Below, one piece after another: positions 623 through 1,463 of a DNA stretch of 33,695 bases. Origin of the DNA: a virus (Duplodnaviria; Heunggongvirae; Uroviricota; Caudoviricetes). How positions within the stretch are numbered: position 1 is the first letter of the stretch; each line of letters starts with the position of its first letter. The position numbers were made by a program, and so were the translations under genes. The stretch is taken from the IMG/VR virus record IMGVR_UViG_2737471863_000001; one strand, written 5' to 3'. The notes under the pieces were generated by a model, which was given only the letters and a program-made list of their open reading frames with translations, searched no databases and was not told the origin of the DNA.

Positions 623-1357
623 TCAAGATGTGTTTTTGGGGTATGGCTGAATCCTGAATAGCTTAGTGTTTAGTCGCTTTTTTGCGCGCTTATTCAGGAA
701 CCTGATGTAGCGATACTGATTAAATTTGTGTACCACGGCCCGCTCCTTATTAGCCCGCAAATACACGCCTCGTTGCCCTCCACGCTTAATCGCGTTCATC
801 GTTATCTCGTGATACCACTCACCATCCAGCTCGTAGAACGTGCTTTCATGGCTGCCAATAAAATCAAAATTCGACGCCTGATATACCACACCAGCGCGTC
901 CGCAGCGTTCGTCGGCAAAAGACTGAACCCACTCCACTGACGGATACAGTAGTCTGATGGTTTTTAGCGCGTAGCTGATGGCCCGTGATTCAGAGTTGCG
1001 GGGCATGTCGTCGTGTAACCACATGCGGTTCAGTTCCATATAGCTCCGGTTATCCGTTTCCAGCACAACACGACGCCCTGAGTTGGGGTTAAGGGCATAT
1101 CCCCACTGAAGAACGCCAACCAGATCACGTCCGCTGAATACGCCCAGATGCAGGTAGGAGTTATTCACAAAACGGCGGGAATAGTGTTTTGTCTGAATGA
1201 TTGTGCGGGCCAGCCAACAGGATATGGTTTCAACGCGCAACTCCCTTGAACCATAGCCGACAATCCGGCCTTCATACTCAATAACGCAGGGTTTTGTCAG
1301 AATGCGTGATTTCTTCTCTTTTCCCACAATACAGCTCCGTGGGATGCTCTTTGGCAT
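623..1357 (-). CDS. mom: Mom DNA-modification (anti-restriction) protein; start codon uncertain
   Basis: ORF overlaps the 3' part of com in another frame and is the last phage gene, as in Mu. Track ORF opens at TTG 1369; first ATG is at 1357 (cat 1355-1357) with no SD, consistent with Com-dependent translation. Stop TGA at 623-625. Confidence 0.65.
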
Positions 1358-1463
1358 TCGATATGACAATGTAACGTTTACAGCGAGGGCATTTAATTTC
1401 TATATGCTTAAAACCTCCTTTAAACAGTAATTTATTGCAGTTTTTACAGCGAACAGAGTCCAT
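1278..1463 (-). CDS. com: Com zinc-finger translational activator of mom
   Basis: 61 aa from ATG 1463 (cat 1461-1463), AGGGGG SD 6 nt upstream; sequence [15 protein letters not shown]...IKCPRCKR...[11 protein letters not shown] has the CxxC...CxxC zinc finger and closely resembles recalled Mu Com. Confidence 0.8.

Follow-up and report, generated by a model that had tools for sequence, protein, structure and literature searches.

Does the minus strand of a Mu-like E. coli prophage carry an intact com-mom anti-restriction operon at its right end, and, if so, from which codon is mom translated? The DNA analyzed here, referred to as the window, is the full 33,695-nucleotide stretch of IMG/VR virus record IMGVR_UViG_2737471863_000001 (Caudoviricetes), and the two genes occupy positions 623–1463. 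Judged by its sequence, this region is an intact Mu-type com-mom anti-restriction operon in an E. coli Mu-like transposable prophage, and its mom gene most likely begins at a GUG codon that is predicted to be masked in the mRNA until Com acts. For the reading as a whole, a functional-looking com-mom operon with a Com-unmasked GUG start, we put the probability at about 0.9. The system is a textbook one that is already known, and the exact sequence is already annotated in RefSeq, so the locus carries little weight as a discovery; its use lies in what the comparison of lineages says about the start codon, the RNA switch, and the promoter.

The com and mom genes and their products

The com and mom genes overlap in different frames on the minus strand (Table 1). 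The offset from the com ATG at 1463 to the mom GTG at 1327 is 136 nt (136 mod 3 = 1), and the mom start lies inside com in the other frame, as in the Mu-type overlap. The mom frame is open from 1369 to the TGA at 625–623. Across com-mom the DNA is 88–89% identical to that of Mu, D108, SfMu, and Yersinia Mu-like phages, and Mu (AF083977, genes Mu_52 and Mu_53), D108, and SfMu have the same gene order and out-of-frame overlap. The first-pass annotation had described an intact com-mom module with overlapping reading frames, in which a Com-type zinc-finger open reading frame (ORF) overlaps the 5' end of mom in the Mu arrangement; the coordinates, the Pfam and PHROG matches, and the identity to Mu bear this out.

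The similarity of both products to known com-mom proteins is, by profile and pairwise comparison, far above chance. The com product scored 30.5 bits against the Pfam model Zn_ribbon_Com (PF10122, cut-off 22.9) and matched the PHROG family "gpCom control of modification" (phrog_13819) at 4.3e-43. It is 74% identical to the Com proteins of Mu and D108, its zinc ligands Cys6, Cys9, Cys25, and Cys28 align with the four cysteines of Mu Com, and relative to Mu it carries a one-residue deletion between the two CxxC pairs. A sequence search of the Protein Data Bank (PDB) with Com matched no solved structure. We placed the com start at 1463 because the upstream ATG at 1490 is not conserved: the corresponding codon is GTA or ATA in sister loci, and this candidate was rejected. 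The RefSeq copies of Com are labeled as a DNA-binding transcriptional regulator, whereas the literature describes an RNA-binding translational activator; the label, which comes from the PGAP pipeline, would seem to be a misnomer.

The mom product matched the Pfam Mom model (PF25680) with E = 1.4e-75 and 253.8 bits (cut-off 27.1) over profile positions 1–202 of 202, the PHROG family of Mom-like DNA modification proteins (phrog_1384) at 1.6e-83, and the crystal structure PDB 8bv8 at E = 4.5e-155; NCBIfam gave no model match for either Com or Mom. The product of 623–1357, whose similarity to the Mom family the first-pass annotation had singled out for checking, is 96–97% identical to Mu and D108 Mom. 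Mutagenesis of Mu Mom has shown that R111, S124, D149, and R151 matter, and also W48, H58, Y59, Y159, and W181 (PMC13219725). All ten functionally tested residues (Y28, W48, H58, Y59, R111, S124, D149, R151, Y159, and W181, counted from the upstream ATG to follow PMC13219725) are kept in the window, and the helix-turn-helix-like insertion at residues 175–209 is identical to that of Mu. The two mom genes differ at 48 codons synonymously and at 10 non-synonymously, and purifying selection on mom is therefore indicated. By these comparisons the mom product is a bona fide member of the Mom family, and we regard the gene pair as intact because of the family matches, the conserved functional residues, and the purifying selection.

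Start codon of mom

In the curated Mu record (AF083977) the mom start is a GTG with an upstream GGAG as its ribosome-binding site, and according to the Com literature this GUG sits in the stem of a translation inhibition structure (TIS) (PMC6483171). Mu and the window share the block CCCACGGAG-N7-GUGGGAAAAGAG, which places the Shine-Dalgarno (SD) sequence at 1338–1335 and the GUG at 1327–1325; SD, 7-nt spacing, and GUG are identical in the two. The com-mom junctions first retrieved from IMG/VR and GTDB genomes numbered 47 and represented 13 distinct junction cores. A single-protein scan with one genome per species gave 3 loci only, and the IMG/VR scans were more productive. Both the GTG and the GGAG at 7 nt were unchanged in all 47 junctions (13 cores).

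The first-pass annotation had pointed to an in-frame ATG at 1357–1355, 80 nt inside com, that lacks an SD, and these coordinates check: the upstream sequence (...ACAUUGUCAUAUCGA-AUG) is without a purine-rich SD. Were mom translated from this AUG, the product would be a 244-aa protein, and the Com hairpin and the inhibitory stem would both fall within its coding sequence. The codon is in frame, it is kept in most lineages, and it is the start chosen by RefSeq (PGAP; WP_072129593.1 and WP_001372435.1 for the locus proteins) and by the D108 record, while the 2026 structural paper numbers Mu Mom from it (PMC13219725); the field is thus not uniform on the N-terminus of Mom. Besides lacking an SD, however, the AUG is base-paired (P(unpaired) of 0.06 or less in the window) and forms the 5' arm of the Com hairpin stem. 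This ATG at −30 has become GTG in four cores (L032, L033, L034, and L042), and in a Scandinavium relative (L004) an in-frame stop codon separates it from the GTG.

The pattern of substitutions points the same way. In the 50-nt overlap all three differences between the window and Mu are synonymous in mom and non-synonymous in com, whereas upstream of the GTG three of the four mom-frame codons that differ from Mu do so non-synonymously (Fisher p = 0.005 and 0.014 for the contrast in constraint). Because the overlap changes are synonymous and the ten codons between AUG and GTG change mostly non-synonymously, mom-frame constraint appears to start at the GTG. Mu Mom in its ATG form tolerates the loss of its ten N-terminal residues (PMC13219725), and in the crystallized chain of 8bv8 (232 residues) residue 2 aligns to residue 1 of the GTG form. 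With the curated Mu record and the Com literature also giving the GUG, initiation at AUG 1357 seems very improbable, and both ATG 1357 and TTG 1369 were rejected as starts on comparative grounds. We conclude that mom most likely starts at GUG 1327 with GGAG as its SD and that, since the comparative data favor the GUG, the RefSeq (PGAP) and D108 gene models probably include ten codons too many. This preference for GUG over AUG is of practical use for the annotation of mom genes.

Predicted Com-binding hairpin and translation inhibition structure

In Mu, the motif that Com recognizes, 5'-CC(N)2-3GAG-3', is presented by the hexaloop of a small hairpin that adjoins the TIS (PMC6483171). A 19-mer with this motif, GAAUGCCAAAGAGCAUCCC, is present in the window and is predicted to form the same stem as in Mu, with the loop reading CC-AAA-GAG in place of CC-UGC-GAG; both are of the CC(N)3GAG form. 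Directly 3' of it lies a predicted 8-bp stem of −8.5 kcal/mol (Mu, −8.7 kcal/mol) whose arms are identical to those of Mu. A sequestering hairpin had been sought by folding the mom initiation region, and folding recovered one, UCCCACGG/UUGUGGGA at 1344–1322, in which the masked start is GUG 1327 and not AUG 1357. The partition function gave P(unpaired) = 0.00 for the GUG, with the first two guanines of the SD mostly paired. A search of Rfam matched no family to the element. The first-pass annotation had left the true start and the Com target hairpin unresolved; homology and comparison now resolve both.

Among the 13 close variants both stems were 100% paired, with wobble-preserving changes only, which is conservation and not covariation. 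For the Com hairpin the question is settled by more distant relatives with 71–80% Mom identity and by a Magnetospira contig (L006) with 52%, in which the overlap arrangement is also kept. In these relatives the Com stem reads GCAC/GUGC, GUGC/GCAC, GGGC/GCCC, AAGC/GCUU, ACGC/GCGU, or GUGC/GCGC, and the loop retains C-N(2-3)-GA with the closing C-G pair. Across 17 distinct variants three of the four pairs of the stem change on both sides (12 cells), 95.6% of cells are paired compared to 83.8% in shuffles, and 0 of 500 shuffles reached the observed covariation score; the 18-nt segments used for this calculation were cut by hand and anchored on the loop motif. The N positions of the loop, which correspond to one com codon, vary freely (UGC, AAA, GUU, UCA, ACA, CGG, CAG, and others), even within the Com type of the window, and the CC and GAG flanks are invariant. 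On this comparison the three N positions are therefore unlikely to be specificity determinants of Com. The natural variation across lineages independently supports the SELEX-derived Com motif and the 4-bp hairpin stem, and the features of a Mu-type Com/TIS translational switch (hairpin, masked GUG and SD, and gene overlap) are clearly present in the predicted fold of this locus.

A more elaborate switch was also considered, in which GAAUGC (1359–1354) pairs with a GCAUUC approximately 55 nt downstream to form a long-range helix. The helix would act as a clamp on the inhibitory stem and as a competitor of the Com hairpin, and Com would work by selecting the hairpin conformer. This helix is part of the minimum-free-energy fold of both the window and Mu, and it is 96% paired in the 13 variants, where four of its pairs vary on one side only, mostly to a G-U wobble. 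It shows no compensatory double changes, however, and its conservation is explained by protein constraint because the 3' arm lies in conserved mom codons (S-R-I-L). Three unpaired cells occur, in L004 and L047, and the helix is outside the published models (PMC6483171), with folds no better than those of shuffled sequence. We consider such a clamp improbable and did not adopt it, and we retain the two-element switch of hairpin and adjoining inhibitory stem.

Several relatives depart from this arrangement. In L105 the hairpin loop is UCAUGAA, without CC..GAG. In L125 and the Magnetospira contig the hairpin is flanked by an anti-SD sequence, CUCCG, on its 5' side and by the SD, CGGAG, on its 3' side, and the two pair with each other; the Com hairpin is thereby nested in an SD-sequestering helix, and the start is AUG. 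In four further IMG/VR loci (L097, L099, L103, and L119), with Mom homologues approximately 78% identical, the 75 nt upstream of mom hold neither com coding sequence nor a Com hairpin, and an ATG that immediately follows a GATC-rich region serves as the mom start, which suggests that control of mom without a translational lock is possible.

Table 1. Positions of the com-mom genes, predicted RNA elements, promoter-region features, and other genes considered in the window.
Feature	Positions	Strand	Description
com	1278..1463	minus	61-aa CCCC zinc-finger translational activator; ATG 1463–1461, TGA 1280–1278; same coordinates in PGAP
mom	623..1327	minus	234-aa GNAT-fold DNA adenine-modifying enzyme; GUG 1327 to TGA 623; overlaps com by 50 nt (to com stop 1278)
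com Shine-Dalgarno	1467..1472	minus	GGGGGA; kept in window-type loci
mom Shine-Dalgarno	1335..1338	minus	GGAG, 7 nt before GUG; homologous to the site annotated in Mu AF083977; invariant in 13 close junction cores
Com target (predicted)	1341..1359	minus	19-mer; stem AUGC 1357–1354 / GCAU 1347–1344, hexaloop CAAAGA 1353–1348; motif from PMC6483171
Translation inhibition structure (predicted)	1322..1344	minus	1344–1337 pairs with 1329–1322, 8 bp; buries GUG and half of SD
Intergenic control region	1464..1582	minus	presumed Pmom equivalent, between DUF4376 tail-fiber-assembly gene and com
Dam site GATC-1	1558..1561	minus	in CGATCG; homologous to first GATC of Mu
Dam site GATC-2	1540..1543	minus	in CGATCG; 18 bp from GATC-1, as in Mu
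CATC	1527..1530	minus	replaces third GATC of Mu; 13 bp from GATC-2; Dam site lost
Candidate activator site	1505..1520	minus	GATTAAATACCCCCAG box, at the place of the Mu C-binding region; conserved among window-type loci
−10-like hexamer (putative)	1476..1481	minus	TATTAC, from hand alignment; TATTAT or TAATAC in sister loci; distance to GATTA box about that of Mu TAAGAT
Mor/C-family activator gene	27161..27610	minus	only one in window; 63% identical to Mu Mor, 32% to Mu C; candidate late/com-mom activator
Signal-peptide ORF	1..504	minus	167 aa; downstream of mom, inside prophage; not part of the com-mom mechanism

Proposed mode of action

By homology with Mu (PMC6483171, PMC3378877, PMC13219725), a single late transcript would carry both com and mom. 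Com would be translated first from its own SD and AUG (1472–1461), while on the naked mRNA the 8-bp stem would keep GUG 1327 and part of its SD locked. Binding of Com to the adjacent hairpin would open the inhibitory stem and allow ribosomes to initiate at GUG 1327, 50 nt ahead of the com stop codon. Mom, with its GNAT fold, would take glycine from Gly-tRNA(Gly) and attach it to adenine N6 in double-stranded DNA; rearrangement of the glycyl group would yield the carbamoylmethyl-type adduct 6-NcmdA, and packaged phage DNA modified in this way would be expected to resist many restriction enzymes. The translational lock would keep the toxic enzyme off until late in infection. Binding of Com to RNA, unmasking of the start, the enzyme chemistry, and late transcription gated by Dam and OxyR are taken over from work on Mu; the identities of both proteins, the tested Mom residues and four Com cysteines, the predicted hairpin and inhibitory stem, and the comparative evidence for the GUG can be read from the locus itself.

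Certain points weigh against this reading, the ATG-based gene models and residue numbering described above among them. The inhibitory stem is without compensatory changes among close relatives and overlaps conserved com codons; that it is conserved therefore does not by itself tell constraint on the RNA from constraint on the protein. The folding z-scores are unremarkable (−1.3 to −0.3). A −10 element at 1481–1476 would leave a very short com leader. Transcription cannot be assumed to be Mu-like, since the locus keeps two of three GATC sites and lacks a Mu-type C box, a T-stretch, and a separate C gene, and all of the support at this locus is computational.

Promoter region and transcriptional control

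Upstream of com, the block TATAG..GACGATCGA-N..-ATCGATCG aligns with the Mu mom regulatory region, and the part downstream of it has diverged from Mu. The 18-bp spacing of GATC-1 and GATC-2, both in CGATCG as in Mu, is kept in Mu, the lineage of the window, L004, L005, and L047. At the third site every window-type locus has CATC, where the Mu, L005, L045, and L047 lineages have GATC; two of the three sites of the Mu cluster are kept. The com leader is approximately 17 nt shorter than that of Mu. Among the features of Mu Pmom are a C box and a T-stretch (PMC3378877, PMC4461284). Where Mu has its C-binding region (GATTATGCCCCAATAACC), the window has the 16-mer box listed in Table 1, which occurs once in the window. 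The Mu-type CCATAAyC box and T6 run are absent upstream of com, though the box is present in other lineages. A consensus promoter scan of the minus strand upstream of com returned nothing useful and did not pick up the TATTAC hexamer.

No homologue of Mu C was found in the window, where the single Mor/C-family gene is Mor-like; Mu has two such genes. The combination of a C gene with a C box and T-stretch spacer is thus missing. We rejected a Mu-type C-dependent promoter upstream of com on the grounds that the 16-mer box is unique, a related 10-mer is not enriched, a Mu C homologue is lacking, and the promoter scan is empty.

The translational switch may accordingly be combined with transcription that is wired unlike that of Mu: the single Mor-like activator, or else read-through from the tail-fiber operon, would drive com-mom, with a reduced gate of two Dam/OxyR sites in place of Mu C on a C box. 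We regard this as tentative but quite possible. In addition to the lone Mor-like gene, the missing C box and T6 stretch, and the CATC of all window-type loci, no terminator was predicted on the minus strand in the scanned stretch 480–1700, in which the intergenic region separating the DUF4376 gene from com is included. A dyad resembling that of the Mu middle promoter Pm, GCCGGTAAATCCGGC-T7, follows the Mor-like gene and recurs near 19.4 kb, and the related motif CSGTAAAYC is present in 12 copies compared to 0.8 expected. Neither the dyad nor this motif has a copy upstream of com, however, where only a loose TTAAATACCCCC occurs; the specificity of the activator is not readable from its sequence; and the conserved ATAG..GACGATCGA..ATCGATCG block argues for retained OxyR/Dam control.

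A broader view of the lineage, which we consider rather doubtful, is that it keeps the Com/RNA lock and has lost much of the transcriptional fortification of Mu. The Mor-like activator or read-through would then drive the toxic mom gene on a transcript that may reach the extra secreted-protein gene, and the translational switch would be the main safeguard. Retention of the translational lock in a lineage without Mu-type transcriptional elements is itself a useful observation.

Two features of the wider window concern the activator. A sequence, GAAGCCGGTAAATCCGGCTTTTTTTATGCC, lies right after the Mor-like gene (27076–27160) and is nearly identical to the region that is annotated in Mu as the Mor-activated middle promoter, with a second copy near 19.4 kb, in 19362–19574; the organization suggests a two-tier rather than a three-tier transcription cascade. 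The 12 CSGTAAAYC sites (e.g., 15491, 17477, 19422, 19558, and 27142, minus strand) were not equaled in number in any of 100 shuffles, and five of the copies are in the few intergenic gaps of the late-gene strand. The motif may be an activator-binding or a terminator-associated element.

Prophage position and neighboring genes

As in Mu, the operon is near the right end of the prophage. A disrupted gspE contains the Mu-type terminal sequence (...TTTTTCGTGCGCCGCCTCA), approximately 188 bp past position 1 of the window. Positions 1–2200 of the window are 100% identical to five complete E. coli chromosomes (RM11911, RM13745, RM13752, XJ34, and XJ6-3), a related stretch is present in 628 of 5,426 complete E. 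coli genomes, and window-type junctions recur in many IMG/VR contigs. The RefSeq names at these positions are "protein mom" and "Com family DNA-binding transcriptional regulator." A comparable layout is described for FluMu, Pnme1, and similar prophages (hin1523, nma1821, hia5; PMC3299994): at the right end of these Mu-like elements a Com homologue immediately precedes a DNA-modification gene, but that gene encodes an unrelated non-specific adenine methyltransferase where the window has Mom.

The first-pass annotation had taken mom to be the last phage gene, which is wrong: mom is separated from the right end by the 167-aa ORF at 504..1. This ORF is AT-rich (37–41% GC compared to 50–56% next door) and matches PHROG 19473, of unknown function, over its full length. 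In D108 this slot is filled by gene 56, to which the ORF has no similarity, and homology to gene 56 was rejected. A role as a defense gene was rejected as well, with no PADLOC, NCBIfam, or significant Pfam match to the ORF. The ORF is probably a moron. With no terminator predicted downstream of mom, it may share the com-mom transcript.

On the other side, com is preceded by the DUF4376 tail-fiber-assembly gene (1583–2149). Unlike Mu, the prophage is without a gin/G invertible segment upstream of com, and the DUF4376 protein stands in place of Mu U/U'-gin. The neighboring tail-fiber ORF of 874 aa (2157–4781, minus strand) is mostly unannotated in RefSeq, where only a pseudogene for its N-terminal domain is called.

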